A stretch of 64,000 nucleotides of DNA from Candidatus Puniceispirillum sp. (GCA_020724065.1 DYHQ01000001.1:26782-90781), one strand, 5' to 3'; shown: positions 15,964 to 46,160, counted from the stretch's first letter. Notes: generated by a model from the sequence alone, not told the origin. Program-made: numbers and translations.

Positions 15964-17802
15964 CTAATGGGCCAGCATTTCCGTAAGAAGGTGATCCATG
16001 AACGACTGTGCTTGCTCCTGATAAGCAAAGTAGAAAGGAAAGCCAAAGACAGCGACGCTGTAAACAGGCCCCAGGTAGACATGGGCACAGTTGCCTCCTT
16101 CAAGCCGCGGGTCATCGGTGGCGGCGTCGAACTTGCCGAGAGTGATTGTCTCGCCCCGGTTGTTGAAAATCCAGCACCTGTCCAGTGCACCCGCCCAGCT
16201 TGCGGGAACCTTTGCAGGATCAATCGCGACATCCGGATAGCCTGTCACACCCGTAATCCCCTTGCACTCGCGTGGGCTCGTGCCGGCACTTTGTATCGCA
16301 TAGAAGAGCCGCATGTAGGTGTAAACGAAGCGATACGGATTGTCTGATGCGCCGACCGGCCCATAGGAAGCCGAGTCCGGTGGGTAGTTGATGCCAAAAG
16401 GCTCGAACAGATCCCACCCGCTAAAGATTGCCTTCCCTCCTCGATCCAAATATTCCGCAAGTACGACTCGATTACTGAGAATGTTCAAGTTTGCCTTGTC
16501 ATCGGCGTGATAGATCACTAAGGCGTAGTGGTAGAGGTCCAAGGGGGAAAGGTAGCTCACTCCGCCCACTTGGTGGGTGGCATAGTCCAATTGAAGGTGA
16601 GGATGGGTGCCGACCATTGCTTCGTAGAAGTTGTCCACCTGTACGTCATTGGGGCTGCCCGCGCCGCCCGTGCCGTCACGCGTCTCGTCTATGATCAGGA
16701 TGGTGTCTGACTCCATCAATTCGAGGATGAATATTCTGTATGATATCGTGTCACTGACTTCTCCGGCAATATCACGGGCCCTGATGCGGAATGAATACTG
16801 ACTGGCCGGAGCGTCCGAGAGCACAATTTCGGGAGTTTCTTGCCATAGCGTTGGATCGAAGGGTTCGTCGCCGATTGCATAGCTGTAGGTGCTTATTCTT
16901 CCAAAGTAAGCTGCGGCACTCGCACTGAAAGTCAGCTTTGTTTCGCGGTTGGCCTTGTAAAAGACCGAGCCATCCGGATAGAAATCGTCCGCGCCATAGG
17001 TTCCAACGACAACCGTGTCCATCGTAGGTCGAAAGCCTTCAGCGACAGTCAAGCGGAGCGAAATCATGGCCCGCCCGGGGGCCTCGCCGGCATCCTTCAC
17101 GCGGGCATAGATCGTATGTTCGCCAACCGTCAACAGATCCTTGTGCATCAGAGTGGTTTTCGGTGGTGGAACGGTTCTAAGAATCCCGTCAACGACTTTA
17201 CGGAAAAGGATGGTATCGCAGAAGAGGAAAATTGGATTACGGGACCAGGAAGACCATTCCTCGACACTATCATCAATGGCAATCGAGTAGAACAGGGAGG
17301 ACGGATTGGGATCTTCGCCTTCGAGCTCAATTGCGAATCCCCTCCCAACCGTCGCGCTATCGGGGACGCTCGTTGCAGCGAAAGCCACGCTTGGACGCGT
17401 GTTGGAAGCATAGAAAGAGCGACTGGGCGGTGAGGTATCCTGCATCCCCTCATTGTCCACGGCGATTACTTGAATTCGATGGGCCACGATGGTGTCGCCG
17501 GGGGCATAGAAGGCGATAGTATCGTCGTAGGCCGAAGTGAACATGAGCGTATCTATGATCGTGGTGTCCGGCGAGATGATCCTATCTATAATCCAGAAGC
17601 CGGCGATGTCTCCATTCGGGTCGGTGGCCGACCATCTCACATGGACGAAGTGATTGAAAGTATCTTGCTCGGCGGGTAGCAGGATGAGCTGGGTCTTGGG
17701 CGGCTGATTCGGGATGGCGCTTCCCGGATCGCTGACTTCACACCCTGCAATGGCGATCACCAGCAAGCCAAAGAGAGTCAATCGCAAAATATCTTTCCGC
17801 AT
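15964..17802 (-). CDS. Large secreted lipoprotein, function unknown. It is the last gene of the minus-strand T9SS/TonB operon.
   Basis: Has a lipobox signal peptide (MRKDILRLTLFGLLVIAIAGC). No CTD or known catalytic motif was recognised. The start was moved to the Met immediately before the signal peptide. Confidence 0.55.
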   Translation of the reverse strand: MRKDILRLTLFGLLVIAIAGCEVSDPGSAIPNQPPKTQLILLPAEQDTFNHFVHVRWSATDPNGDIAGFWIIDRIISPDTTIIDTLMFTSAYDDTIAFYAPGDTIVAHRIQVIAVDNEGMQDTSPPSRSFYASNTRPSVAFAATSVPDSATVGRGFAIELEGEDPNPSSLFYSIAIDDSVEEWSSWSRNPIFLFCDTILFRKVVDGILRTVPPPKTTLMHKDLLTVGEHTIYARVKDAGEAPGRAMISLRLTVAEGFRPTMDTVVVGTYGADDFYPDGSVFYKANRETKLTFSASAAAYFGRISTYSYAIGDEPFDPTLWQETPEIVLSDAPASQYSFRIRARDIAGEVSDTISYRIFILELMESDTILIIDETRDGTGGAGSPNDVQVDNFYEAMVGTHPHLQLDYATHQVGGVSYLSPLDLYHYALVIYHADDKANLNILSNRVVLAEYLDRGGKAIFSGWDLFEPFGINYPPDSASYGPVGASDNPYRFVYTYMRLFYAIQSAGTSPRECKGITGVTGYPDVAIDPAKVPASWAGALDRCWIFNNRGETITLGKFDAATDDPRLEGGNCAHVYLGPVYSVAVFGFPFYFAYQEQAQSFMDHLLTEMLAH

Positions 17803-17837
17803 TTGAGTAACTCCTTCCGGGAAAAGTGAGCGCCCTT

Positions 17838-18905
17838 CTACCATGCAAATCCAAGCGAAAATCGGTGTGGCTGCATACTGAATTCCTCCACAGCCGCGGT
17901 GATATCGCCAAAATAGGAGTAGGCATAGTCGAAGGTGAGGCGGTAGTCCCTACCCATTGGAATCTTAAGTCCTAAGCCAGCGGAGAAACTTTCGGTATCA
18001 TAGGCGAATTTGCCTCCAAGCCGAAGGGCAAGCACCTTATTCCAAATGTACTCCCCTCCGATATTCAGGCGCTCTCGATTGTCATTGGGGTGATTCATCT
18101 CGACCGAGACAATCGCGTCATGCTTATCTCCGGGGTGTGCTTTCACCATCTCAAAGAGATTGGCTGACACACCCAACCGGAACATCGTGGGCAGCGCTGC
18201 ATCCTCATAGCCACGCTCGAAGAGGCCACCGCTTTTCGTCTGATTCCGATAGTCGAAATAGCTGCCCGAATAGGTGACATTGGGACCCAGGTTCTGTATG
18301 GCCATCCCAATCATCAGAGAGCGCAGACCCGTCTGATAGAGCGTCCCCAAGTCGAGCGACAACCCATTGTAGGTCGAATTCTCGAGTCCCGAGCGGAGGT
18401 AGCGCAAATTCGCTCCAAGGGAAAATCGGTCCGTGAGCAGCCGGGCGTAACTCCCTCCAATGATGAAATCATAGGCATTGAAATTCTCGCCCGTGCCCTC
18501 AGGTCTGTAGTAGGTTCGGACTTTCATGTCGCCCGTGTAGAGATTGATGATATGGAGCGAAGCCGCTTGCACGCCGAATTTGCGGGCAATCACGAAAGTA
18601 TTCAGCTGGATGTCCGCCGGCATGTTGATCTGTCCAAGAACGGCCTCGTAGTGCTCTCCCTTGGCACGCTCCAAATAGACGAGCCCTGCGGGATTCCAGA
18701 AGACGGACGAGGCGTCTCGGCACGCTGCGACTTGAGCATTTCCCATCCCCACGCCTCGCACACCCACGGGAATCTTCAAGACTTGAATGGATGTGGTTCC
18801 TACTTTCTCCAAGGCGGATGCGGGGCAAGTTAGCATCCCAAGCAGGAGCAAGAGCAATACCGGAAAAGCGATCAGGCCTTTCCAATGCGCATTTTGATGG
18901 CTCAT
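17838..18905 (-). CDS. PorV/LptO-family outer-membrane beta-barrel (T9SS cargo shuttle), paralog 1
   Basis: Has a signal peptide and the PorV N-terminal signature (GVRGVGMGNAQVAACRDASSVFWNPAGL). The C-terminal residue is aromatic. It is paralogous to 50129..51175. Confidence 0.65.
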   Translation of the reverse strand: MSHQNAHWKGLIAFPVLLLLLLGMLTCPASALEKVGTTSIQVLKIPVGVRGVGMGNAQVAACRDASSVFWNPAGLVYLERAKGEHYEAVLGQINMPADIQLNTFVIARKFGVQAASLHIINLYTGDMKVRTYYRPEGTGENFNAYDFIIGGSYARLLTDRFSLGANLRYLRSGLENSTYNGLSLDLGTLYQTGLRSLMIGMAIQNLGPNVTYSGSYFDYRNQTKSGGLFERGYEDAALPTMFRLGVSANLFEMVKAHPGDKHDAIVSVEMNHPNDNRERLNIGGEYIWNKVLALRLGGKFAYDTESFSAGLGLKIPMGRDYRLTFDYAYSYFGDITAAVEEFSMQPHRFSLGFAW

Positions 18906-18908
18906 ATC

Positions 18909-19682
18909 TTACTCTCCATAGACAAGCACAATTGTTCCCGTGATTTTCGATCCCTCTTGCGTTACTCTCGCCCGAAGGGCATGTTCGCCCGGCGTCAGTC
19001 GCGCCAGCCAGTTCAGTTCGATGTAGCGTCCCTCATTCGCTGGATCCGCGGCGTTCCACTGCCTCATTCGGAGCTGAAAGGACCGACCTTTCATTCCCGA
19101 TGCCGAATCTGTCGGGCTGGCATAGAAGTGCTGACCGGACAAGGTCGTATCGTTGAGATAGACGGCTTCGGGGTATTTGGCCAGAGAGTCATAGGCCAAG
19201 TCATCGAGCCATAGGGAAAGAACGAACCGGTTGTCCGCGACGATGATGAGCGAGTCACGACTGTTACCCATGGCCGTCGTCTCGGCAATCGCTTGACTTA
19301 GACTGTCTCGAGTGGGGATGCCGATGAGGCTGTCTTCATGAGTCCAAGTGGAATCGGCACCCAGCATATCCAGCACCACCAGGTAGCTGGTGATTCTGTC
19401 GGCCGTCGCAGGGAGCCAGATGTTCATAATGGCTTCCATCGAGTCAATAGTACTGTCCGGGTGAATGAAGCCGGCGATCGTCATGCTGGCAGATTCCAAC
19501 AGGTCACCTACTTGAAAGGTGGCACTGAGCGCCTGCACTCCCGAGAGGGCGTCTTCCCAGAGTATGATGGTCTCCGTATTCGCTTGTTCTGAGGAGGCGG
19601 GCGGTGGTGTCCGCGGATCCGCACAGCCGGCCACGAGCAAGGCCACAAGGCACATGAAGAGAAGAAGCTCTAATACTTTCAT
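18909..19682 (-). CDS. Secreted lipoprotein, function unknown
   Basis: Has a lipobox signal peptide (MKVLELLLFMCLVALLVAGC). There is a 3-nt gap to the PorV paralog. Confidence 0.55.
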   Translation of the reverse strand: MKVLELLLFMCLVALLVAGCADPRTPPPASSEQANTETIILWEDALSGVQALSATFQVGDLLESASMTIAGFIHPDSTIDSMEAIMNIWLPATADRITSYLVVLDMLGADSTWTHEDSLIGIPTRDSLSQAIAETTAMGNSRDSLIIVADNRFVLSLWLDDLAYDSLAKYPEAVYLNDTTLSGQHFYASPTDSASGMKGRSFQLRMRQWNAADPANEGRYIELNWLARLTPGEHALRARVTQEGSKITGTIVLVYGE

Positions 19683-19732
19683 AGAGGTCTTTCCTTTCAA
19701 TCGGAATTCGCTTCGTTGCACCAGCCCTTCTT

Positions 19733-21970
19733 TCATTTGATGACAACGAACTTGCCAATATAGCGATCCCAAGGTGTGAACTCGTCCGCTTTGTGTTCGA
19801 CGACATACAGGTAGATGCCGCTCACGATTTCTTGCCTATTTTTGGTGATGAGGTTCCAAGTCTCCTGTTCGGTCCCATTGCAGTGATCGAGAGTGGCCAA
19901 ATGATCTCCCGCCAGGGAGAAAATCTTGATCTTGCATCGCCCCGGCACGCCATTGGCGGGCAAATGCATGAAGTAGAGTTTGCGCGGATATTCAATGAGT
20001 CCCTTCGAGGGATTCACCTCACCGCCAGCTTCGCCAGGGTGAGAGCCCTTGTAGGGATTGGGATAGACATAGATATCGCTCAGGATCGGCGACGCGCCGG
20101 TTGCTTCGGTTCGCACGGTCTTAATCTCTCTGTAATTGCCCGTTCTGGAGGACATCAAGATTCCTGCGCCTTCGACTCCCTTGTCAAAAGCTCTCACCAC
20201 ATAGTAGTAAGTATGACCGGGAATGAGGTCGGTATCATCGAAGTAGTACTGCCCGAGGGAATCAATGTTCGTGGGCATTCCGAGGTTGTAGTTTTGCCAC
20301 TCGAATTCTCCCTCGAGTGTGTCAATGCGATCATAGTAGGCAAGCGCATGCCAATCCTGCTGGTTGAAGGAGCGTTCGATCAGATACCCTTCAAAGTCCA
20401 TGTCCTGCGTGATCGGATCAATGGATTCCTCAGCATTCGGCAACCACGAAATGCGAACCGTATCTGGAGGATGATACCCTACGGTAAAAATCGGCGCATT
20501 TGGTGCCGCAGGGCCTTGAAAATCATTATTGTATAGGCGCAGCGCCCAGTCGGCGTTTTTTGAGCCCTCTGTCGTGTCTCCTCCGGCAATAAAGGCGACT
20601 GTAATCGGGAGCTCCTCGCCCGGCCGAATGATCCATTCTCCTTCACTTGGTCCGAAGCCCAAAAGCATGCGCCAATCCCCCTTTTGCGGCGTGGCCGGAG
20701 CAATAGTACCTGCCGAAATCATGTTGTATTTATCTGCATTCGTTTCGGGGTCGCCGCCAGCCACGCGCTCGAAGTTCGCAAAGGTCACTTCGAGGCTTTC
20801 CAGCGGAACGGGAGTCTGCACCACACGAATGGCGAAGATGCCTGGGGCGGGCCCGTCGTCGTCATTCGGATCATCGTACTGAATCATCATGAGCCGGCCT
20901 GGGTCATAGTAGTTGTAGTCATCAAGGGAGGCCGCATCCCCGCCTTCTCCCCGCGCTCCAATATCGGGATCGGAAAACATGGCCATATAGACATCGCGCA
21001 GGGAAAGCTGCCCGATATTGCGAACTCTGAAATCCAGAAGGATAAACTCGGCTGCATAGTCCTCGGGGTACGCGTAGGTGCGCTGCGAAACCTGGATCTT
21101 GAGAGGGGTATGGCCATCCGCATCGGGGCTGCCTACATAGGTGGCCTCAATGTCGTCTTGATAGACGCAGAAATACTCCTGGACTCCTCGAGCCACACCG
21201 TCTTCGTCAATCTCCCCATCGCCATCGTCGTCCAAAGCCCCGGGGACTTTGTCTCCGTCCAAATCGGGATCTTCAATGTCTACGAGGCCATCGAAGTCAT
21301 TGTCAATGTAGTCGGACGCCATGTCCCCGACGGGATCTTCGTCCATGTGGGTTTCGGGATCGTAGCGCAGATTGCCATCTCCATTGGCGTCCAGACTGTC
21401 TCCGTCCCAATCGGCTGAGGGTTTGCCGTCATTGTCAAGGTCGTCGGCAAGACTCCAATCTCCGTCGTCATCCACACCTTTAGCGCCCTTCACATAGAAT
21501 CGAGGAGGTTCACCCAGTCTCTCGAGCGTCGTTGAAGTGACCACCCAATCGCCAAAATCCGCGGATGAATTCGCCTGAGGATAGGTTCCGATATGGACGG
21601 GATACATTTCGTTCGTTCCATTATCGCCATCGGTGGCCGTCGTAACGAGTCGGCGCTCGTTTGAGATGGCCCCGATCCAGACACCCGAAGAAAACAGGAA
21701 ATCGTTGCCTGAGTTAATGGGGAACTCGAAACCCTTGTACCCGACCGCACCATCGGGATTTCCCTGTTCTCCCCAATTCGCCATGGCCATTCGCACATTC
21801 CCGATATCGTGCATAATCAAAGATTTACGCGCATTGAGATCTGCACTCTGGATAGTCGGAGGCTCGCCGCGGCGCTGCTCAATCACGGTTCGTGCCGAGA
21901 CCAGGACGACGGCGAGGGTTAGAGTGGCCAAGACTCCGGCAACAAAGGGTCTTCCGGAAAGGTTATGCAT
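19733..21970 (-). CDS. T9SS cargo protein with thrombospondin-type-3-like Ca-binding Asp repeats, a fibronectin-III-like region and a C-terminal sorting domain
   Basis: Has a signal peptide. Has DxDxDG runs (DNDGKPSADWDGDSLDANGDGNL, DNDFDGLVDIEDPDLDGD, DDDGDGEIDEDG). The C-terminus is a T9SS CTD (IYVYPNPYKG...GIYLYVVE...KFVVIK). Confidence 0.7.
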   Translation of the reverse strand: MHNLSGRPFVAGVLATLTLAVVLVSARTVIEQRRGEPPTIQSADLNARKSLIMHDIGNVRMAMANWGEQGNPDGAVGYKGFEFPINSGNDFLFSSGVWIGAISNERRLVTTATDGDNGTNEMYPVHIGTYPQANSSADFGDWVVTSTTLERLGEPPRFYVKGAKGVDDDGDWSLADDLDNDGKPSADWDGDSLDANGDGNLRYDPETHMDEDPVGDMASDYIDNDFDGLVDIEDPDLDGDKVPGALDDDGDGEIDEDGVARGVQEYFCVYQDDIEATYVGSPDADGHTPLKIQVSQRTYAYPEDYAAEFILLDFRVRNIGQLSLRDVYMAMFSDPDIGARGEGGDAASLDDYNYYDPGRLMMIQYDDPNDDDGPAPGIFAIRVVQTPVPLESLEVTFANFERVAGGDPETNADKYNMISAGTIAPATPQKGDWRMLLGFGPSEGEWIIRPGEELPITVAFIAGGDTTEGSKNADWALRLYNNDFQGPAAPNAPIFTVGYHPPDTVRISWLPNAEESIDPITQDMDFEGYLIERSFNQQDWHALAYYDRIDTLEGEFEWQNYNLGMPTNIDSLGQYYFDDTDLIPGHTYYYVVRAFDKGVEGAGILMSSRTGNYREIKTVRTEATGASPILSDIYVYPNPYKGSHPGEAGGEVNPSKGLIEYPRKLYFMHLPANGVPGRCKIKIFSLAGDHLATLDHCNGTEQETWNLITKNRQEIVSGIYLYVVEHKADEFTPWDRYIGKFVVIK
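21190..21490 (-). repeat. Asp-rich calcium-binding (TSP3-like) repeat tract inside the cargo gene
   Basis: This stretch encodes DDDGDWS...DNDGKPSADWDGDSLDANGDGN...DNDFDGLVDIEDPDLDGDKVP..DDDGDGEIDEDG. Coordinates are approximate. Confidence 0.5.
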
Positions 21971-21990
21971 GAGCTTCTTTACTCCTCTCC

Positions 21991-24900
21991 TTAGAATTCA
22001 ACTCCGAGGCCCACACGGACAAGTCGTCGGGCATCCCAGGCATCGGGATTCGGTCCCGCTTTGGGATTCAGGCCATAGTTTGGAGAAATATTGTCGTTGA
22101 CATAGCCGGCTCGCCCGTCAAATTCGGAATAGGTATCAATGGTGAAGCGGTTCAGATCCCAGCCAAGAATATTGCGGGCGTTAAAGATATTGCGTATCTC
22201 CAGAAGTAGACGCCAACTCAATTTGCCTATTTTGAATTGCCGCGATGCATCCACATCGGTCGTATAGGACCAAGGCGAGCGTTCCGAGAATTCCAGCCCC
22301 TCGATATCGGTGCCGTTGGCATTCGTCGGCGTGTAGGGCAGACCTGAAAGAGCCTGCGAGAGGATGTTCACACTCCATCCCGTCCTCAACCAAGCGGCCG
22401 AAAACGGCTTGCCCCTTAGCAGGCTGTGTGCGCCGATGTTTGCGACGATGGTGTGCCGGCGATCCCAGGCCAGAGGCGTCTCGCGCTTCGGATCCACATA
22501 GTTGGCTCGCGTGACATCCGACCCAATATCATACGAATTCTTGCCGTTGGCCCATGAAATCGTATAGCTCAAACGCCCCGCAAGGTTCGCTCCATATTGC
22601 TTGGAGACACTGAATTCAAATCCGCGAATCGAGGCATAGTCTGCGTTGTAGTATATTGCTGCGTTTGTGCCAACAATACGCCGACCATAAAGGTCGAAGT
22701 AAAGCTGGTTTTGAGAAGCCGTCTGGATCCAGTTCTTGATGTCTTTGTAATAGGTCGAAACATCCAACAAGAAATCTTTGGCAAACTGGTGACGGACTCC
22801 CAACTCATAGGCAATCGTTTTCATCGGGTCCAGGTTGGGATTTCCAATGATGGGAGTGCCGCCGGTCTGGAGCTGGTTCACCGCCGTAAAATAATAGTCG
22901 AGCCGTGAACGCTGGTAGAAATAGCCGTAGTTGAAATGGAAGACATCCTTCTCGGTCACGCTATAGGAAACGCCAAACCGGGGAGAGAGGTAGACTTTTC
23001 CTTCCTTGGGAGGCGGCTCGTAGTCAATGTAATTCTCCGCTCCTGTCTGAGCAATCGGCTTTTCGATGGTTGAGCCGGCATTCCAGTAGTCCATCCGCAG
23101 TCCCATGTTGACGATGATGTCCCGATATTCCATCTTATCCTGGAGATAAATGGCACCTTGGGACGGGAAGGCATGGTAGACATCCGTGTAGATGCCTTGT
23201 CCTGCATTGTCAATCGTCGGGTAAGGTCGGTCTTCCGCCTTCACATCATAGTAGTTGTATTCGAGCCCGGCTTTGACAAGGTGTCGCGGCGTGACTTGGC
23301 TGGCAAGGTCAAACTTCGCGGTCCAAGTGCCGGACTCGAAGTGTGCCCAGTCGGGAACCAATTGCTGGTAGTTTCCGGCCAGCCCATCGCCAATAATGTG
23401 GAATCCGTTTACATGGTCATAGCTGTTCGAGGGATTGCCGGCGTCATAGAGCCCGTCGCCGTCCTGATCCGAGAAAGGTTCTCCAATGTCGTACCGCTGG
23501 TTGTATTTTCCCAGGGCATTGGGAAGATCCGTGAAGGGTTCACCTGCCGTTCCATATTCGCTTGCAGACTTGTCGGCTCCCGCTAAAGTGCGGCTGGCGC
23601 TGAAAGCGCTGAGTCTGACCGTGTAGAAAGTCTTCTGGTTGACGGTGTGGCTCCAGCCAAGGGATACCTGTTGATCCCGTACGCGGTCGGTTCGTGTGTG
23701 GTCGTTGGCGTTATAGCTGTACGATTGCAGATCCTCGTCAATCAGGCCGTCCAGGTCGTCATCGGCCCAGTTAAGGGCTTCTTCGTCGGTGCGACCATCG
23801 CCGTCATCGTCCTCGCCGAATCGGTTGGCATAGGACGGTGCATCTGAGGCATAGCTTTGGGTGGAGGCCAAGGCCAGCATTCCCAAGGAATCCTCTTCTT
23901 GCGAAAAATCATCCGGGAAAATCCGAGATAGCCGGTACCAATACGGATTCTCCCATTGTTGAGATTGATTCCATCCGAGAGTCACTTTATATGCCTGAGC
24001 GGGGGCGTAGGTCAGTTTCACATTCGACGCGGTGTACGCCTGATTCTTGCGTATGTCCGCTCCGAACAGGTCGGTGACCTGGTGGCGATACCAACGGCTG
24101 GAGTTGATCCAAATGCCGTGCTCATTGGTGTTTCGCGACCGAACATTGCCCGAGGCGAACAGGCTCATGGTTCCGGGAAGGCGTGTGCCAAGACGGGGAA
24201 GAATGTGAGTCGTGATTGGTTCCGGACCCGAGATGGACGCCTCGGAATAGTCATAATCTTGATAATAGCTGTCCCCCGTGTCAAAATCCTTCGCATCGAG
24301 ATCCATCACATGCTGCACTTGTCCGTGGTAAGCTGGTTCGCCTTCGCGGACAACCAGATTCACCACGGCAGACTGCGCTTCACCATATTCGGCATTGTAC
24401 CCTGCCGTAAGGACAATCATCTCGGCGATGGAACCCGACCCAACATCCAGCGAGCGTTGCTGAAATTGCGGGTCCTTGACCTGAAGGCCATCCACCAGAT
24501 AGAGGATTTCGTCTCGACGGCCGCCGCGAATATGGATATTCGTTCCCGTTCCCACAGCACCGGCTGTTGCGGCAAGTGCCTGCTGATAAGTTGTTACAGG
24601 AAGGGCTTCAATTTCTTCCCGAGTAACAATGTGAGTGGACGAGGTGATATCCTTGCGTACGACATCGCGTTCGGCCACAACGGTGACTTCCTCTCCCAGA
24701 AGCACCGTCTGCTCCATCGAAAAGGATTGCTCCGTTGTGAGGTCTTGGACAACCACCACCCCTGTCATGATGATGGTTTTGTATCCGATCGCTGTGGCGC
24801 GCAGGTCACAGGTTCCCGGCAGAACATTGAGAATAAAATATTCGCCGTCAATGTTGGTCGAAGCCCCCTGAGTGGTTCCGACAATAAGGATATTCACTCC

Positions 24901-25029
24901 CGGCAACGGCTCACCGGTCGCCTTGTCTTTGATGACGCCGGCGATCTTTCCGGTGACCGCTCCCATCACCGGCGCACCAAGGACAAAAATGAGCAAGGGT
25001 AAAATCAGAAATAGGATTCGCCTGTTCAC
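21991..25029 (-). CDS. SusC-like TonB-dependent receptor (CarboxypepD_reg domain, plug, beta-barrel)
   Basis: The start was re-chosen as a GTG preceded by AGGAGGT, giving the signal peptide MNRRILFLILPLLIFVLG. Has a CarbopepD_reg domain (GKIAGVIKDKATGEPLPGVNILIVGTTQGASTNIDGEYFI), a plug (THIVTREEIEALPVTT) and the C-terminal ...RVGLGVEF. Acidic DDDGDGRTDEE..DDDLDGLIDED inserts are also present. Confidence 0.8.
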   Translation of the reverse strand: MNRRILFLILPLLIFVLGAPVMGAVTGKIAGVIKDKATGEPLPGVNILIVGTTQGASTNIDGEYFILNVLPGTCDLRATAIGYKTIIMTGVVVVQDLTTEQSFSMEQTVLLGEEVTVVAERDVVRKDITSSTHIVTREEIEALPVTTYQQALAATAGAVGTGTNIHIRGGRRDEILYLVDGLQVKDPQFQQRSLDVGSGSIAEMIVLTAGYNAEYGEAQSAVVNLVVREGEPAYHGQVQHVMDLDAKDFDTGDSYYQDYDYSEASISGPEPITTHILPRLGTRLPGTMSLFASGNVRSRNTNEHGIWINSSRWYRHQVTDLFGADIRKNQAYTASNVKLTYAPAQAYKVTLGWNQSQQWENPYWYRLSRIFPDDFSQEEDSLGMLALASTQSYASDAPSYANRFGEDDDGDGRTDEEALNWADDDLDGLIDEDLQSYSYNANDHTRTDRVRDQQVSLGWSHTVNQKTFYTVRLSAFSASRTLAGADKSASEYGTAGEPFTDLPNALGKYNQRYDIGEPFSDQDGDGLYDAGNPSNSYDHVNGFHIIGDGLAGNYQQLVPDWAHFESGTWTAKFDLASQVTPRHLVKAGLEYNYYDVKAEDRPYPTIDNAGQGIYTDVYHAFPSQGAIYLQDKMEYRDIIVNMGLRMDYWNAGSTIEKPIAQTGAENYIDYEPPPKEGKVYLSPRFGVSYSVTEKDVFHFNYGYFYQRSRLDYYFTAVNQLQTGGTPIIGNPNLDPMKTIAYELGVRHQFAKDFLLDVSTYYKDIKNWIQTASQNQLYFDLYGRRIVGTNAAIYYNADYASIRGFEFSVSKQYGANLAGRLSYTISWANGKNSYDIGSDVTRANYVDPKRETPLAWDRRHTIVANIGAHSLLRGKPFSAAWLRTGWSVNILSQALSGLPYTPTNANGTDIEGLEFSERSPWSYTTDVDASRQFKIGKLSWRLLLEIRNIFNARNILGWDLNRFTIDTYSEFDGRAGYVNDNISPNYGLNPKAGPNPDAWDARRLVRVGLGVEF

Positions 25030-25204
25030 CTCAACACCTCCTGCACTATGGGTTGCTCCGGTCAGTGCATGATTGAATCGCAAGGCTCTTTCGTTCGTCG
25101 CAGTTTGGAATGGATGGAACAAAGAAATTCCGGTCTGGGGCAAGGCAGTCTACCTTGCCCCAGATTCGAGTCACCACAAAAATGAGAGAGTCTTGTCTCT
25201 CGTG

Positions 25205-27214
25205 TTACTTCAGCACAACCATCTTTCGGCTCTCGCTGAAACCGTTGGCCGAAAGCCTGTAGATATAGATGCCGCTGGTTAGATTGGAGGCATCGAACGG
25301 AATCGAATAGGAGCCGGCGTGCAACCGCTCATCGAGCAGCGTCGCCACTTCCTGGCCCAGCGTGTTGTAGACCTTCAGCTCCACCTGAGTCGGCAAGGCC
25401 ACATCGAATTTGATGGTCGTCGTCGGGTTGAACGGATTCGGGAAATTGCCGTAGAGGGTGTAGACGGTCGGCTGTGCCGGATGCGGATAGCGCTTGACAT
25501 CCAACCACACATGGCCGGCAACGACCGCGTGTTCTGCATGTGCCGAGTAGTTCATCACGACATCATAGGCGTCACAATAGAACCAGATGGTGTCGCCGTC
25601 AGCGACCTGAGCACCGTCAAAATGCGTATCCGGAACGGTGAAGTAGTAGGTCCCTGAGAAAGTCTCGGGATCGGTCCATGAATAGCTATCAGGGTTGGCG
25701 TAATTCCATTCGGCTCCGTGAGTATTGCTCATCCAGTTCACCAAGATATTGCCTCCGTCATAGTCAACTCCCGTCGCATCCGAAAAGTCTGCGCTGACGA
25801 CATAGGGGCCGAGGGAAGTGGGAGGTGTGACCAATGTCTGATTGGCAATCACGGGACCCTCGAGGTCCGACTGTCCATATTGAGCGCAGAAAGTGATATA
25901 GGCCACGCCCATTTGGCCGCCATCCAATTGGCACTGCTCAATGAAACCGCCGACCAAGCCATCTTCGAAAATGTCCCAGAGCTTCCAGCCGCCGGCCCAA
26001 GTGGCTCCGCCGTCGGTCGAGTAGTTCACCCAGAGCCCTTCCGGAGTAAACTGACCCCAGACATTGCACATCGCGATTGCATTACTGCCACTGAAATAGC
26101 CTTGGTGCACATAGAGAAGGTCGCGGGTTCCGTCATACAGGAGGGAATCAAGGAAGGTTCTTCCCGTCCAAGAGCCTCCGTTGTAGCCGAGTTCGTCGAA
26201 GGCATACCAATTCTTGTGGTAGGCGCCGGTCGCAGGAACGCCGGCGTTGGAGAATATCCACGGCATTTGACCTGTGGGGTCAGCCGCCGAGGATGGATAG
26301 CGCTGCGCACCGGCAATCGTGGAGCCGCCGAAAGTCGAGCCTTGATCCATTGACAAATAGACGGCTGTTGCCGATACATCCGAGTTTCGGAAGCAGCCGA
26401 AGAGGGCGTTGTTGTCCACATCATAGGCCATGGGCATACAGGCTCCAATGTAGTAGCTGTATTCGGTTCCGGAGTAGTCATTTGGGTCGTAGATGGTCGC
26501 CGTGCCCGCCATGGATGTTGGGAAGCGAGCGAAGTATTGGTTGCGATCCCCGTCCGCATCCTGGAAAATGAAGAAGAAGTTGTTGGCGCTCGCCTTCTCC
26601 GCCAAGTGCGGATACTGGGCTGTTGCATGAATGGTTGGCTCGGTCGCCACTACGACCAACGCACTCCAGTTTGCGCCATGATCCGTGGACTTGGAGGCCC
26701 AGAAGGTCGTATTCTCACGGGCATCTGTTCCCCATATGAGGCAGTACAGATTGCCGGAGGGGTCAATGGCCGCACTCGCCCAGGAGAAGGTGTTGGTTCC
26801 CTGAGCGGCGATGAGTGTCTCCACCCAGTCTGTTCCGCCATTCGTCGTGTGGACATCGTAGACTCCGTCGTCTGCGGCGCTTGCATGGGTGTTGATTACC
26901 CCGAAGTAATGGAGATTGTTCTGATCATCGCACAGGCTGCCGAAGTCATACATCTCGGAGTTCCAACCTGTCAGATCGGACAAGTCCCCCGCCTGCCGGA
27001 TATCGGACCAGGTGTGACCATAGTCGGTGGTTTTCACATACCGATACTGAATTTCATTCTGATCAAGGTGTCCGTTCCCTTGGCAGGGTAGCCGGACAGC
27101 CTTTTCATGGTTCCCAGGAAGGGCCTTCGGATTGGGGAGAGCCCAAGCAGAAACGACAAGCATCAAACCGATTCCCAGAGCCAGCGCGAGGAAGATGGTT
27201 CCTTTTTTGGTCAT
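25205..27214 (-). CDS. BNR/Asp-box (sialidase-like) repeat protein with a T9SS C-terminal sorting domain. It is the first gene of the minus-strand operon.
   Basis: Has a signal peptide. Has multiple SxDxGxTW Asp-boxes (TTDYGHTWS, STDHGANWS, SMDQGSTFG, STDGGATWA). The CTD is FPNPFNPTTTIKFDV...KVYNTLGQEVATLLDE...GIYIYRLSA...MVVLK. Confidence 0.75.
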   Translation of the reverse strand: MTKKGTIFLALALGIGLMLVVSAWALPNPKALPGNHEKAVRLPCQGNGHLDQNEIQYRYVKTTDYGHTWSDIRQAGDLSDLTGWNSEMYDFGSLCDDQNNLHYFGVINTHASAADDGVYDVHTTNGGTDWVETLIAAQGTNTFSWASAAIDPSGNLYCLIWGTDARENTTFWASKSTDHGANWSALVVVATEPTIHATAQYPHLAEKASANNFFFIFQDADGDRNQYFARFPTSMAGTATIYDPNDYSGTEYSYYIGACMPMAYDVDNNALFGCFRNSDVSATAVYLSMDQGSTFGGSTIAGAQRYPSSAADPTGQMPWIFSNAGVPATGAYHKNWYAFDELGYNGGSWTGRTFLDSLLYDGTRDLLYVHQGYFSGSNAIAMCNVWGQFTPEGLWVNYSTDGGATWAGGWKLWDIFEDGLVGGFIEQCQLDGGQMGVAYITFCAQYGQSDLEGPVIANQTLVTPPTSLGPYVVSADFSDATGVDYDGGNILVNWMSNTHGAEWNYANPDSYSWTDPETFSGTYYFTVPDTHFDGAQVADGDTIWFYCDAYDVVMNYSAHAEHAVVAGHVWLDVKRYPHPAQPTVYTLYGNFPNPFNPTTTIKFDVALPTQVELKVYNTLGQEVATLLDERLHAGSYSIPFDASNLTSGIYIYRLSANGFSESRKMVVLK

Positions 27215-27640: not shown

Positions 27641-28396
27641 TTGAGTCAGCCGCTTGTTTTTGCACTTGATGCCCGCACGAAACTCGGAGTGGCTGCTGTC
27701 CTTATCATGGGGCTACTCCTGGTTGACGACGCAATTGCGTTGGCTATTTTCGCTGCACTTCTCATCGTGACGGGGGCCTTTGCGCGGGTTCCCTTTCGTC
27801 TCGTTGTCCTCGCATGGCTTGCTCTTTGGCCGGTTCTCCTTCTGACGGTCTTGATTCATGGATTGATAGGTCCTTCGTCAGGGCAGATACTTGCGCACTT
27901 GGGCGGCCTCACGATAACTACAGGGGGATTATCCCGCGGGGTGCTCTTTGCCTTTCGTTTCATGCTTTTCGTGTTCATTTCGCGTCTCGCGCTGCACATC
28001 GGCCGCGGCGAAGAGTATGGGCGCGCTGTTGCCAAGTTGCTTGCACCACTTCGGCGCTTTCGGTTACCCGTCGGCGAAATCGAGCTTGTTCTTAGCGTCG
28101 CCTTTCGCTTGATTCCGATTCTGGAGCATGAGGCTGGCCGATTGATTCTGGCTAATCGAGCACGCGGCATCGTTACGGGCTGGGTAGGCAAGATTCGACA
28201 GCTACCGGCTCTTCTTGTCCCTCTCTTCGTCGGAGCCTTCCGGCGTGCCGATGCGTTGGCCATTGCCATGGAAGCCCGGGGTTTCGCAGTCGGTGCTCCC
28301 CGTTCATCCTATATACGAGCACATTTTGGGTTGCTCGACCTCTTGGCACTGGCCTTTGCGGTCGGTGGGACCGCGTTGGCAATCGTCCTCTCATAA
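27641..28396 (+). CDS. ecfT: ECF transporter transmembrane (T) component
   Basis: Has the CbiQ/EcfT topology and the conserved ARG..ME.RG region (ANRARGIV...AIAMEARGF). Starts with TTG. Confidence 0.75.
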   Translation: MSQPLVFALDARTKLGVAAVLIMGLLLVDDAIALAIFAALLIVTGAFARVPFRLVVLAWLALWPVLLLTVLIHGLIGPSSGQILAHLGGLTITTGGLSRGVLFAFRFMLFVFISRLALHIGRGEEYGRAVAKLLAPLRRFRLPVGEIELVLSVAFRLIPILEHEAGRLILANRARGIVTGWVGKIRQLPALLVPLFVGAFRRADALAIAMEARGFAVGAPRSSYIRAHFGLLDLLALAFAVGGTALAIVLS

Positions 28397-28418
28397 GCCA
28401 TAGCTTCAGGGCTCCGTG

Positions 28419-29222
28419 ATGGCAGAGCAAATGTCATACCGTTTGGAAGTCGAGTATGAGGGATCCGATTTCCAGGGTTGGCAAGTCCAGAGAACAGGGC
28501 GAACGGTTCAGGGAGAGCTGGAGAAGGCCTTGGCGAGGCTGTTTGGGGAGCCAACCGTGGCTGTTGCCGCCGGCCGAACCGATGCGGGTGTGCATGCCAC
28601 GGGGCAGGTCGTCCATTTTCACGCGGCGCGCAAGAGGCCGCCGGAGACGGTAGAGCGGGCGCTGAATGCACTGCTTCCCGAGGACATCTTAATAAGGAAA
28701 GCGTCGCTCGTATCCTCGGACTTTCACGCGCGCTTCCAGGCGTGCTGGCGACGATACAAATACATCCTGACGACTCAGCCATCCGCGCTCTGGCGCCGAT
28801 TTGTCTGGCATCCGCGATTTGAATATGACTTCGACCTCGTCAGAGAGGCCGCCAGCGATTTTTTGGGCCGGCATGACTTCTCTTCGTTTGTCCTCTCGGG
28901 AGCGGACAGCGAGAGTACCCTCTGCCAAGTGTTTCGAGTTCTCTGGGAGGAGAAGGAAACGCTTAGAATCTTTGACATCGTCGCCGATAGATTTCTGAGA
29001 GGGATGGTCAGACTGATTGTGGGCACCTTGCTTGAGATTGGTCGAGGCAGATTTGAACCGCGGTCAATACCGCTCATTCTCGCGGCACGCAATGTCGGGC
29101 GAGCGGGTCCTGTGGCGCCGCCTCAAGGTTTGACACTGGTTGAGATCGGCTACGCCCCTTGGGAGGTGGCCTCCGAAGAAGTCAAAACTGAAAGGAATGC
29201 GTTATTCTGTGAGGGCGCATGA
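28419..29222 (+). CDS. truA: tRNA pseudouridine(38-40) synthase
   Basis: Has YRLEVEYEGSDFQGWQVQ and the catalytic AAGRTDAGVHATGQVVHF. Confidence 0.85.
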   Translation: MAEQMSYRLEVEYEGSDFQGWQVQRTGRTVQGELEKALARLFGEPTVAVAAGRTDAGVHATGQVVHFHAARKRPPETVERALNALLPEDILIRKASLVSSDFHARFQACWRRYKYILTTQPSALWRRFVWHPRFEYDFDLVREAASDFLGRHDFSSFVLSGADSESTLCQVFRVLWEEKETLRIFDIVADRFLRGMVRLIVGTLLEIGRGRFEPRSIPLILAARNVGRAGPVAPPQGLTLVEIGYAPWEVASEEVKTERNALFCEGA

Positions 29223-29875
29223 AGATTTTTCTTGATACAGCCGACCTATCTGAAATAGGACAGGCGGTCTCATGGGGGATTTTGGATGGAGTAACGACGA
29301 ATCCCTCACTCATGGCCAAGGCCGGTGCGTCGGATTTCAAGGTTCACCTACGAAAGATCTGCGATGTAGTCCAGGGCCCTGTGTCGGGTGAAGTCGTCAG
29401 CGTGGAGCCGGACGGGATGCTCAAGCAAGCTCACGAGCTTGCGGCGATTAGTCCACACATGGTGATCAAAGTCCCCATGACCGTGGCGGGCTTGCAGGTC
29501 TGCAAGAAACTGAACACCGAGAACATTCCGGTCAACATGACTCTCGTTTTCAGTCCGGCGCAGGCACTGTTGGCCGCGAAGGCGGGTGCGACCTATGTCA
29601 GCCCGTTCATCGGGCGGTTAGACGACATCAGCCATTTCGGCATGGATGTTGTTCGAGATATTGTGGCTATCTTTGATCGATACGGCTTCGAAACAAACTG
29701 TCTGGCAGCGAGTCTGCGGCATCCGCTTCATGTGGTTGAAGCGGCATTGGCGGGAGCGCATGTGGCAACTCTTCCCTGGAATGTTTTGGAGAAACTCGTC
29801 CATCACCCCTTGACAGATGTTGGCATTGACCGCTTCCTCCAAGATTGGAAGAAGATTCGACCGGAAGGATGGTAA
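29219..29875 (+). CDS. tal: Transaldolase (short Tal/FSA subfamily)
   Basis: Has MKIFLDTADL...GVTTNPSL. Length is 218 aa. The Schiff-base Lys lies in the region VIKVP. Confidence 0.8.
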   Translation: MKIFLDTADLSEIGQAVSWGILDGVTTNPSLMAKAGASDFKVHLRKICDVVQGPVSGEVVSVEPDGMLKQAHELAAISPHMVIKVPMTVAGLQVCKKLNTENIPVNMTLVFSPAQALLAAKAGATYVSPFIGRLDDISHFGMDVVRDIVAIFDRYGFETNCLAASLRHPLHVVEAALAGAHVATLPWNVLEKLVHHPLTDVGIDRFLQDWKKIRPEGW

Positions 29876-29933
29876 AGACTCCTGAGCGGGTTTCTGTCAC
29901 CTTGCGGTTCATCAAAGTTGGTTGCGCGCGGAG

Positions 29934-31181
29934 ATGATGCGACTCATTTCCTATTTTATTATCGGCCTTCTCGTCGGGACGGCGGCGGTGTTTCTCTACC
30001 ACCGGGACCGGACGCTCAGTCACGAAGTCGAAGCGCTTCGGCTTCAGAGTTCGGCTTTTCAATCGCTGTCCACTGCACAGGTCAGCTTGGAGAGCGACAA
30101 GCCTCCCTCCTTCGGTTCAACTTCAACCGTCGTCCAGTCGGAGATAGAAACCTCCCGTCATAACGCCATCACGCGAGCCATAGCGCGAACGGCAGATGCC
30201 GTCGTGGGAATCAATGTCATTCAAGTTCGCCAGGTCGTGTCCCGCAGCCCTTTTTTCAATGACCCGTTCTTTCGTGAGTTCTCTTTTGGATTGCCGCCTC
30301 GGGTCTTTCGGCAGAAAGTCGAGAACCTCGGCTCGGGTTTTATCATCTCTTCGGATGGCTATATTGTTACCAACGAGCATGTGGTTCAAGGTGCGATTGA
30401 AATCGTCGTCACAACGACTTCGGGGAAGCGATACAATGCGCGAGTCGTCGGCACGGATCATCTTCTCGATGTGGCTCTGCTGAAAGTTGATGAGCAGAAC
30501 TTGCCCTGTGTGGAATGGGGAGATTCCGATGACTGCATCACCGGTGAGTGGGTCATCGCTATCGGCAATCCTTACGGGCTTTTTGCGGTCAACGATCAGC
30601 CGTCGGTGACTGTGGGAGTCATTTCGGCGCTGCATCGTGACTTCGACCGGAACGACGAGGGCCGAGTCTACAGTGACATGATCCAAACCGATGCTTCCAT
30701 CAATCGAGGCAATTCGGGCGGCCCGCTCGTCAATGCGCTGGGGCAAGGCATTGGCATGAACACGATGATCTTCACCGAGACTGGCGGGTCGCTCGGCATT
30801 GGCTTTGCGATCCCGTCGGCGCGCATTCGCTCGATGATTGATGAACTCATGAAGGGCGGCGTGAATCGGAACTACTGGATTGGCGTCGTGGCCAATGATT
30901 TGAACCGCATGATGGCGATTTCCTTGGGGCTGAACTCAACTGACGGCGTTATCGTTTCCCAGGTCGAGCCTCGCAGTCCGGCGGGGAAAGCGGGAATTGA
31001 GCCGGCGGATGTGATCTTGGAAATCAATAGCCGCAAAATCCGTAGTACTCAAGAAGCGCGCGGTGTTATTGATAATGCTGACCTGAAAGTGGGAGACAAT
31101 CTGACTTTCAAGATCTATCGAGAGGGCAAGATCCGCGAAGTCGTTGTCAAACTCGAGGAGCTTCCTGAACCTCGCGGCTAA
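29934..31181 (+). CDS. HtrA/DegP-family periplasmic serine protease with a PDZ domain
   Basis: Has an N-terminal transmembrane segment. The trypsin-like catalytic triad lies in VTNEHVV, DVALLKV and GNSGGPL. A C-terminal PDZ domain is present. Confidence 0.8.
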   Translation: MMRLISYFIIGLLVGTAAVFLYHRDRTLSHEVEALRLQSSAFQSLSTAQVSLESDKPPSFGSTSTVVQSEIETSRHNAITRAIARTADAVVGINVIQVRQVVSRSPFFNDPFFREFSFGLPPRVFRQKVENLGSGFIISSDGYIVTNEHVVQGAIEIVVTTTSGKRYNARVVGTDHLLDVALLKVDEQNLPCVEWGDSDDCITGEWVIAIGNPYGLFAVNDQPSVTVGVISALHRDFDRNDEGRVYSDMIQTDASINRGNSGGPLVNALGQGIGMNTMIFTETGGSLGIGFAIPSARIRSMIDELMKGGVNRNYWIGVVANDLNRMMAISLGLNSTDGVIVSQVEPRSPAGKAGIEPADVILEINSRKIRSTQEARGVIDNADLKVGDNLTFKIYREGKIREVVVKLEELPEPRG

Positions 31182-42306: not shown

Positions 42307-42315
42307 AGGTTGGTC

Positions 42316-45957: not shown

Positions 45958-46160
45958 TTAAAACATCAGACGGCTTGCCAGGAGATAAATGCCCCTTCCT
46001 TAAGAGGATTTTTGAGTCGGGAATTCGATTTCAAAGACTACATCCTCCGTCGTTACCTCTTCCGGCAGGGCGCTATCTCCTTTCAAGTTTCTTGCGACCG
46101 AATGATTCAGGTAACGAATGTTCGGTTTTTTTGTTGTCAACCGTCGGGAACTACTCATTT

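Follow-up and report, generated by a model that had tools for sequence, protein, structure and literature searches.

A SusD-less TonB-dependent transporter gene block with a PorV/PorQ-family barrel recurs across candidate phyla

Here we describe a block of six co-directional minus-strand genes, designated g1 to g6 in 5' to 3' order, in a 64,000-nucleotide (nt) stretch of DNA assigned to Candidatus Puniceispirillum sp. (GCA_020724065.1 DYHQ01000001.1:26782-90781; this whole stretch is referred to as the window). The block combines a TonB-dependent transporter (TBDT, g2) with an outer-membrane barrel of the PorV/PorQ family (g5), two proteins with C-terminal domains (CTDs) of the kind associated with type IX secretion systems (T9SS; g1 and g3) and two lipoproteins (g4 and g6), and its core recurs in candidate phyla related to Bacteroidota. 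TBDTs with surface partners, such as SusCD, RagAB, TbpAB and BtuBG, are central to the feeding of Gram-negative bacteria, and such partners are almost unstudied outside Bacteroidota and Proteobacteria. A first-pass annotation of the window, made by a model, had read the six genes as a tight operon that secretes, anchors and imports in a self-contained manner. All six open reading frames (ORFs) are indeed present between 15964 and 27214, and a canonical T9SS gene pair lies elsewhere in the window (Table 1).

Table 1. Coordinates of the module and of related features in the window (aa, amino acids)
Feature	Position	Strand	Description
g1	25205-27214	-	669 aa; secreted Asp-box repeat protein, probable beta-propeller, type A T9SS CTD; lineage-specific accessory
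Hairpin	25134-25164	-	14-bp, GC-rich, in the g1-g2 spacer; possibly a terminator, attenuator or mRNA-stabilising element
g2	21991-25029	-	TBDT: CarboxypepD_reg N-terminal extension, TonB box GEEVTVVA, plug, barrel, D-rich Ca-type loop inserts
g3	19733-21970	-	745 aa; beta-supersandwich (galactose-mutarotase-like) with D-rich insert, FN3, variant type A CTD
g4	18909-19682	-	Orphan lipoprotein, N-terminus GCxDPRTxP conserved; nearer clade only
g5	17838-18905	-	355 aa; PorV/PorQ-family (FadL-like) outer-membrane barrel of a distinct subfamily found essentially only in the module
g6	15964-17802	-	Lipoprotein: short acidic tether, three FN3/Ig-like domains, C-terminal GATase1/ThuA-like (GIFT-like) alpha/beta domain
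PorU then PorV (canonical T9SS)	45975-51175	+	Context only, outside the module

Of the layout proposed at first, the genes, their common strand and their coordinates stand, and the claim that no gap exceeds 61 nt does not: the likely start of g2 is a GTG at 25029 with GGAGG upstream, so that g1 and g2 lie 175 nt apart rather than 61. The remaining intergenic gaps, from g2 to g6 in order, measure 20, 50, 3 and 35 nt, and g2-g6 are tightly packed. The g1-g2 spacer folds into an unusually stable structure (25110-25205(-), 96 nt, -39.6 kcal/mol, z -5.33; 0 of 200 shuffles equally stable), and the g1 transcript may be terminated or stabilised separately at the hairpin formed there. A weakly T-rich tract lies 3' of this hairpin. 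Two further starts were revised: g4 begins at M31 (19682), which gives it the lipobox LVAGC, and g6 begins at 17802, 14 codons 3' of the ORF call, because the database contains a 100% identical protein (P0001) of 612 aa. A single source was found for that protein, a 3.3-kb Logan contig, and an exact look-up of the g5 protein returned no database record. Rfam gave no match in the window at gathering thresholds and, for the intergenic regions upstream and between g1 and g2, none at E 1 either, and therefore no riboswitch points to a ligand; scans for promoter and terminator consensus sequences stayed at background level.

Homologues of g6 with 32-40% identity were found on four long contigs, one of them a KSB1 metagenome-assembled genome (MAG), and all four carry the same six genes in the same order within entirely different flanks, with no member of a SusD family. 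A scan of a genome collection with an alignment of g3 returned 59 loci. Counting the four contigs just mentioned, a g3 orthologue lies 20-335 nt downstream of a TBDT in 50 loci, while seven loci of the scan without a TBDT hold truncated or fused g3 paralogues, one paralogue of 27% identity, or a short repeat match. Wherever a locus extends far enough for a verdict, g5 comes after g3, and g6 comes after g5 in 38 of 42. Among the labels of the MAGs recovered are Calditrichota (one MAG being named Caldithrix abyssi), KSB1, Fermentibacteria, Candidatus Hatepunaea and Candidatus Coneutiohabitans; several binned assemblies carry the names 'Alphaproteobacteria' or 'Cytophagia', which evidently cannot be trusted.

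A search with the Fermentibacteria barrel extended this set to 2,547 relatives, which carry the NCBI name 'PorV/PorQ family protein' and come from Zixibacteria, Eisenbacteria, Stahlbacteria and Fermentibacteria. The gene order is TBDT, barrel and a 700-aa lipoprotein in Zixibacteria; TBDT, a 701-aa protein and barrel in Eisenbacteria; and TBDT, a 626-aa protein, a 65-aa ORF, barrel, a BNR_2/LamG/CTD protein and a CTD protein in Stahlbacteria. The proteins encoded between TBDT and barrel in Stahlbacteria (626 aa; hhalign 7.5e-51) and in Eisenbacteria (701 aa; 1.3e-74) are homologues of g3. The 700-aa protein of Zixibacteria was considered for the same role and rejected, its lipobox, tether and first Ig domain matching g6 instead (E 1.2e-8). 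An alignment of g5-like barrels across all phyla proved too diverse for search patterns and a narrower, Zixibacteria-type alignment was used; a metagenome scan seeded with barrels of this type only gave 80 loci from 416 confirmed stretches. Among the 50 loci with at least 1 kb of upstream sequence, the gene directly upstream of the barrel is a TBDT in 43 and g3 in 7, and a g6-like lipoprotein is found in 48 of the 50 that extend at least 1.5 kb downstream.

Throughout these loci the gene after the TBDT is either g3 or g5. The absence of SusD that had been noted for the window holds generally, with no SusD-like gene in the block or in any related locus and no SusD Pfam family in the annotated loci. 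Catalytic domains of carbohydrate-active enzymes (CAZymes), regulators and sugar transporters are likewise missing from the block and from the annotated related loci. Altogether, about 100 loci with differing flanks bear MAG labels that span six or more candidate phyla (Calditrichota, KSB1, Fermentibacteria, Eisenbacteria, Stahlbacteria and Zixibacteria). A block kept in about 100 independent loci whose flanks differ is not a chance arrangement, and the view that these genes form one conserved functional unit is upheld. The conserved set is a different one from the BNR-TBDT-PorV trio that had been singled out: the invariant core consists of the TBDT, the PorV-like barrel and the g6-type lipoprotein, with g3 in many lineages, and g1 and g4 are lineage-specific additions. 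Sequence identity differs by part, at 45-65% for g2, 49-60% for g3 and 48-60% for g5, against 30-40% for g1, g4 and g6; the best-conserved parts are likely the membrane core and the less conserved g1, g4 and g6 the exposed ones. The g3-g5 pair also behaves as a tandem cassette, one locus (L114, 343-11891) reading TBDT-g3-g5-g3-g5-g6 and another (L048, 167-2205) having an extra g3-g5 pair. Duplicated or extra cassettes of this kind were seen in L125 and L138 as well.

The TBDT g2 exceeds the cutoffs of PF13715 (58.4 bits), PF13620, PF07715 (40.0 bits) and PF00593 (90.7 bits), and the SusC-type architecture of CarboxypepD_reg domain, plug and barrel that had been described for it is present. A search of the PDB with the single sequence retrieved the N-terminal domain alone; a profile of 18 orthologues was needed for the further matches, to Cir in the plug (6e-18), to PhuR in the barrel and, at the N-terminus, to a SusC homolog. 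All orthologues retain a TonB-box-like strand (GEEVTVVA or DEVIITA) and the plug motif HIRGGR...YLVDG, and their C-terminus is aromatic, usually Phe; TonB box, HIRGGR..YLVDG and terminal F are kept in 17 or 18 orthologues. With its TonB box, its plug and a barrel ending in an aromatic residue, g2 has the features by which TBDTs in general are known, and their conservation, together with the Cir and PhuR matches, makes it a credible TonB-energised transporter. Its placement within the SusC/RagA family, which had also been suggested, fails, as TIGR04056 reaches 69.2 bits against a cutoff of 368.25 and covers residues 66-225 only, that is, the N-terminal extension and plug. By these scores, g2 and SusC appear to share their N-terminal architecture only. 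This architecture is found in approximately 28% of TBDTs, SusC and the secretion-linked Oar among them (PMC6434023). The Oar-like barrel model PF25183 (OMP_b-brl_4) scores 47.6 bits against 30 on g2, over profile positions 519-722 of 838 only. Models for haem, siderophore and Xanthomonas-Caulobacter receptors are not reached.

The 355-aa product of g5 had been identified as a paralogue of PorV, and this assignment is borne out: NF033709 (PorV/PorQ family) gives 183.6 bits against 90 and PF19572 45.0 against 27, and the closest solved structure by sequence is PorV of Flavobacterium johnsoniae (6h3i_F, E 5.5e-14). At the same time g5 stays below the equivalog cutoffs for PorV (NF033710, 78.4 against 250), PorQ (NF033711, 71.0 against 220) and PorV2 (NF052325, 48.1 against 325), and TIGR03519 (PorP/SprF) is not matched. 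FadL was considered as another identity and rejected, Toluene_X scoring below its cutoff. The canonical counterparts lie on the opposite strand, with PorU at 45975-50027 (+) (NF033707, 646 bits) followed directly by PorV at 50129-51175 (+) (348 aa; 278 bits for PorV_fam and 207 bits for the PorV equivalog). Judged by its profile scores, g5 is a true PorV/PorQ-family paralogue in a T9SS-bearing organism. It is 26% identical to the canonical PorV of the window and 34-43% identical to module barrels of other phyla; being closer to the latter than to the PorV of its own genome, this barrel subfamily serves as a marker of the module. The further proposal of a dedicated PorV 'shuttle' is overstated, since a role as fixed anchor or subunit would fit the data at least as well. 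Nor is the module self-contained in secretion, as no translocon or motor is encoded in it and secretion has to go through the main T9SS. The canonical cluster extends over 45975-57328 (+), where PorU and PorV are followed by a T9SS-dependent M6-like inactivated metalloprotease with a CTD and then by a 1068-aa TolB-like/HExxH protein, the ORF of which overlaps that of the metalloprotease by about 105 nt. A GWxTD domain protein (TIGR04514, 86 bits) is encoded at 42310-43761 (+), between SMC and a response regulator and a few kilobases upstream of PorU.

That two members of the block carry T9SS CTDs is also supported, by different routes for the two proteins. For g1 it is direct, with 44.5 bits for TIGR04183 (cutoff 23) and 39.8 for PF18962 (cutoff 27). 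The window's g3 gave no family match above threshold in the Pfam and NCBIfam scans, the best CTD-type hit being CHU_C (E 0.023), and its C-terminus is homologous to the CTD of g1 (hhalign 99.4%, E 5.4e-21); the PNPY motif is followed there by 20 inserted residues that are conserved. Among 33 relatives, CHU_C is matched in 13 and Por_Secre_tail (PF18962, E 0.01 or better) in 5. The C-terminus of g3 is, on these comparisons, a variant type A CTD and a putative secretion signal. As a whole, the protein comprises a sandwich split by a low-confidence D-rich insert with thrombospondin-type Ca-binding motifs, then FN3 and, as the C-terminus just described, a beta-sandwich. The family is large: clustering at 50% identity leaves 909 representatives that match at E 1e-30 or better, a number that grows to 4,724 at 1e-10. 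Paralogues exist in which the N-terminal supersandwich is joined to different C-terminal parts together with a standard Por_Secre_tail (L046, L047, L049, L050, L036; P0016, P0039, P0148-P0180); they often adjoin g6-like proteins with a CTD replacing the lipobox, some labelled 'plastocyanin', and no TBDT or barrel is found there.

Thrombospondin-type motifs of the form D-x-D-x-DG occur at residues ~405-440 and ~515-535 of g2 and at residues ~160-260 of g3. Their distribution among loci is all-or-none, 39 of 39 loci having the motifs in g2 as well as g3 and 3 of 3 in neither, and the TBDTs of all 23 modules lacking g3 have 0-1 copies. Within the motif-bearing loci the D-richness of g2 and g3 shows no rank correlation (rho 0.10), so only the pattern of presence and absence is informative. 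This co-occurrence is suggestive of a surface shared by g2 and g3, perhaps bridged by Ca.

Neither lipoprotein had been credited with a recognisable domain. For g4 this stands, as its profile has no Pfam or PDB match; its orthologues are 30-34% identical, are restricted to the nearer clade and are absent wherever the gap between g3 and g5 is below 250 nt. For g6 (lipobox IAGC) it does not, since the predicted structure contains three FN3/Ig domains and a GATase1/ThuA-like domain. In the Pfam and NCBIfam scans g3, g4 and g6 all lacked a significant match. The residues that follow the lipidated Cys of g6 read C-E-V-S-D, and nearly all of 77 distinct g6-type N-termini consist of a lipobox, an acidic or Gly-rich tether of 8-14 residues and an N-x-x-P that opens the first domain. 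The acidic tether may correspond to the surface-export signal of Bacteroidota, should that rule extend beyond this phylum.

The BNR-type protein g1, from which a glycan or sialoglycan function had been deduced, does not sustain that deduction. It has a signal peptide and five visible Asp-box motifs. The Pfam models for BNR, BNR_2 and sialidase all miss E 0.1; with 20 orthologues combined in a profile, the PDB matches to sialidases went no further than single Asp-box stretches of 25-50 residues, and a CTD structure (8glj_D) was matched as well; and no FRIP motif is visible in the sequence. On these three counts a sialidase identity was rejected as not demonstrable. Its orthologues are 33-39% identical and lie upstream of the TBDT in only about 22 loci, making g1 the least conserved part of the module and one that is missing from most lineages bearing it. 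A distant clade without g1 and g4 (L039-L045, L048, L055) encodes two paralogous proteins of ~600 aa downstream of g6, +3 to +5.5 kb from g5, with Por_Secre_tail and a faint BNR_2 match. These were examined as g1 homologues and rejected, as they have the CTD alone in common with g1.

The reading that we favour, tentatively and at somewhat less than an even chance, is that the locus encodes an uptake complex energised through TonB, in which a dedicated PorV-family barrel holds the surface partners. A multi-subunit outer-membrane complex would form around g2, in which the place of SusD would be taken by the T9SS-exported supersandwich protein g3 and the lipoprotein g6, here joined by g1 and g4. 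Beside the transporter, g5 would act as a dedicated, stoichiometric anchor or assembly subunit, keeping the uncleaved variant CTD of g3, and possibly also or instead the N-terminal tether of g6, at the membrane. The surface proteins would catch a large or scarce ligand and pass it to the TonB-energised barrel. This reading draws on what the sequences show, namely what each part is, an intact TonB box, plug and barrel in g2, the homology of the CTDs and the joint inheritance of the parts across phyla, and further on the conservation pattern, the g3-g5 cassettes, the paired D-motifs and the tethers of g6-like proteins; which subunits touch, which way transport runs and what is transported are inferred. 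The supersandwich fold is the reason to think of a glycan as that ligand; FN3 domains and Asp boxes lean softly the same way. Precedents exist for the proposed anchoring: PorV holds the uncleaved CTD of PorU and PorQ that of PorZ, cognate PorV-like barrels having been proposed to retain such CTDs (PMC5562754, PMC10202324); adjacent type B cargo is held by PorP/SprF-like barrels (PMC9143113); and BamG, of FadL type, keeps the lipoprotein BamH next to BamA, an example of a barrel engaging the N-terminus of a lipoprotein (PMC12611786, PMC12578637). A more specific proposal, unlikely as it stands and still far from negligible, is that the g5-type barrel is a permanent subunit of the TBDT complex that clamps, over the mouth of the transporter, a surface lipoprotein together with a T9SS-delivered protein gripped by its uncleaved CTD with the insert, in an ancient, phylum-spanning alternative to SusCD outside Bacteroidota within the Fibrobacteres-Chlorobi-Bacteroidetes (FCB) group.

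Several considerations weigh against an uptake complex of this kind. We infer the physical link between g2, g5, g3 and g6 from gene context, and the co-occurrence of D-motifs in g2 and g3 is confounded by phylogeny. In contrast to polysaccharide utilization loci (PULs), the module contains no inner-membrane transporter, degradative enzyme or regulator, and its apparently single-copy state and rigid cross-phylum conservation look housekeeping-like rather than nutrient-specific. Since Zixibacteria-type modules lack g3, anchoring a module-encoded CTD is not the universal job of the barrel. Proteins without sugar binding, such as the P1 domain of YidC, can have the supersandwich fold too. Protein export is possible for TBDTs of the N-terminal architecture seen in g2, Oar being the example (PMC6434023), and the TBDT-like PorF counts among the T9SS components without an assigned role (PMC5445135, PMC12704123).

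The housekeeping-like pattern points to the main rival, according to which the module is an accessory or attachment complex of the T9SS, a non-Bacteroidota FCB counterpart of PorF, PorQ and PorZ combined, concerned with surface attachment or glycolipid handling for cargo. The PorV/PorQ-family membership of g5, the CTDs of g3 and g1 and the T9SS in the window all argue for it, as does the housekeeping-like character of a rigidly conserved, apparently single-copy module free of enzymes and regulators. To our knowledge, porF, porQ and porZ are not clustered in Porphyromonas gingivalis, which counts against this rival; so do the failure of g5 to reach the PorQ equivalog cutoff (71 against 220), the restriction of PorZ homology in g1 and g3 to the CTD, and the tandem g3-g5 cassettes, which look more like a ligand-binding part diversifying. 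Normal T9SS output requires PorF, a predicted TonB-dependent receptor, the mutant of which groups in phenotype with those of porQ and porZ (PMC5445135, PMC12704123), and this too speaks for the rival; on balance we judge it improbable. The other rival with a stake in secretion would have the TBDT work outward in the manner of Oar of Myxococcus, exporting a protein or polymer with TonB energy while barrel and lipoprotein serve as accessories. The identical succession of CarboxypepD_reg domain, plug and barrel in Oar, and the partial PF25183 match, are in its favour, and importers and exporters are at present not distinguishable by sequence features (PMC6434023). It is nevertheless highly improbable, given that the secreted proteins of the module already own export routes in a T9SS CTD or a lipobox, that no signal-less candidate cargo is conserved in the module, and that the PF25183 match is limited to part of the barrel.

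The PUL-like reading advanced in the first-pass annotation, in which the locus harvests glycans or sialoglycans with the BNR protein as a sialidase-type enzyme and a SusC-like TBDT, draws on the Asp-box repeats of g1, the SusC-type N-terminal architecture of g2 and the supersandwich fold of g3, which is typical of N-domains of glycoside hydrolases and phosphorylases. It has become very unlikely in light of the missing sialidase match and FRIP motif, the PDB matches confined to single Asp boxes, the absence of g1 from most module lineages, the TIGR04056 score of g2 (69 against 368) and the lack of any catalytic CAZyme, regulator or sugar transporter in the loci annotated. Fortuitous adjacency of unrelated outer-membrane genes is refuted by the synteny survey, with order and content kept in about 100 loci from six or more candidate phyla, and its probability is practically nil.

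Comparison with described systems places the module between several of them. Like SusCD and RagAB of Bacteroidota, it has a TBDT with a CarboxypepD_reg domain before the TonB box, a surface partner encoded immediately downstream and extra surface proteins alongside. Unlike them, it lacks SusD in every locus, its transporter barrel fails TIGR04056, it has no enzymes or regulators, its partners would be delivered to the surface by a T9SS CTD (g3, g1) or as lipoproteins with unrelated folds, and a PorV-family barrel is obligate; the SusC/SusD pair, CAZymes and regulator that characterise a PUL are all missing from the window block and its annotated relatives. BtuB-BtuG and XusA-XusB are SusD-less TBDTs with a ligand-capturing surface lipoprotein of propeller type. 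The comparable element here could be g1, but it has a T9SS CTD in place of a lipid anchor and stands outside the core. The triad of TBDT, 14-strand-type barrel and surface lipoprotein co-receptor in the TbpA-TbpB-Slam system (type XI secretion, Proteobacteria) recalls the TBDT, g5 and g6, by analogy only and without homology, as g5 is FadL/PorV-like and not DUF560.

Among T9SS components, the PorQ-PorZ and PorV-PorU pairs of P. gingivalis likewise have a PorV/PorQ-family barrel encoded together with a protein whose conserved type A-like CTD could anchor, and the adjacent PorU and PorV of the window mirror the g3-(g4)-g5 adjacency. They differ in that g5 reaches neither equivalog, that g3 is a supersandwich/FN3 protein and not a sortase or double propeller, and that the pair is joined to a TBDT operon. 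Duplicating cassettes in which a dedicated barrel adjoins its own T9SS cargo, anchored non-covalently at the surface, are also seen for PorP/SprF with type B cargo (SprF-SprB; PMC9143113), but the module CTD is type A-like rather than type B and g5 belongs to the PorV/PorQ family. In BamG-BamH, a FadL-family barrel sits against a larger one and grips a surface lipoprotein by its N-terminal region (PMC12611786, PMC12578637), although the larger barrel is BamA and not a TBDT, and g5 is classed as PorV/PorQ and not as Toluene_X/FadL. Oar of Myxococcus xanthus and PorF of P. gingivalis (PG0534) are TBDT-like, secretion-linked proteins of the same N-terminal architecture as g2, a likeness drawn from their descriptions and the partial PF25183 match, and neither is known to cluster with a PorV-family barrel. 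Functionally, the module would by analogy stand nearest to the systems of a TBDT plus surface partner, borrowing the CTD-barrel anchoring of the T9SS attachment complex.

The suggestion that this locus type had not been described agrees with the literature as searched for a module of TBDT and PorV-like barrel, in Calditrichota, KSB1 or in general, which gave no account of one; the receptors mentioned in the Caldithrix abyssi genome paper are of BtuB and thiamine type only. The module is accordingly a conserved, previously unremarked combination, and not a demonstrated new principle. It defines a candidate complex of four to six proteins in at least six little-studied, sediment-abundant candidate phyla related to Bacteroidota, and it includes three families (g3, g6 and g4) for which Pfam and NCBIfam have no model. 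It also offers a testable link between type IX secretion and TonB-dependent transport, with a new job for PorV-family barrels, and may illuminate the unexplained PorF; were the permanent-subunit proposal true, it would couple the two processes directly and might explain the role of PorF-like TBDTs in T9SS organisms. A strict, phylum-spanning coupling of TBDTs with PorV-family barrels would come as a surprise to specialists in outer-membrane transport or in the T9SS. At minimum it supplies a rule for annotation, namely that a g5-type 'PorV/PorQ family protein' marks a TBDT module and not a core T9SS shuttle.

Some observations concern the surroundings of the module. In the window it is flanked at 27641-31181 (+) by EcfT/CbiQ-like, TruA, TAL_FSA-like and Lyase_1-like genes, and the same run from EcfT/CbiQ to Lyase_1 follows the Zixibacteria module in L066 (18653-20966), which may reflect ancestral chromosomal synteny across phyla. 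In L066 and about 20 Zixibacteria-type loci (L079-L147) an LplA-like gene lies directly upstream of the TBDT, and downstream the same loci carry an opposite-strand PMT_2/TPR (ArnT-like) glycosyltransferase gene followed by an S8 peptidase with a T9SS CTD. The TBDT and g1 are split into several frames in L005 / L024 (contig_91450), which probably points to long-read frameshift errors and not to pseudogenes.

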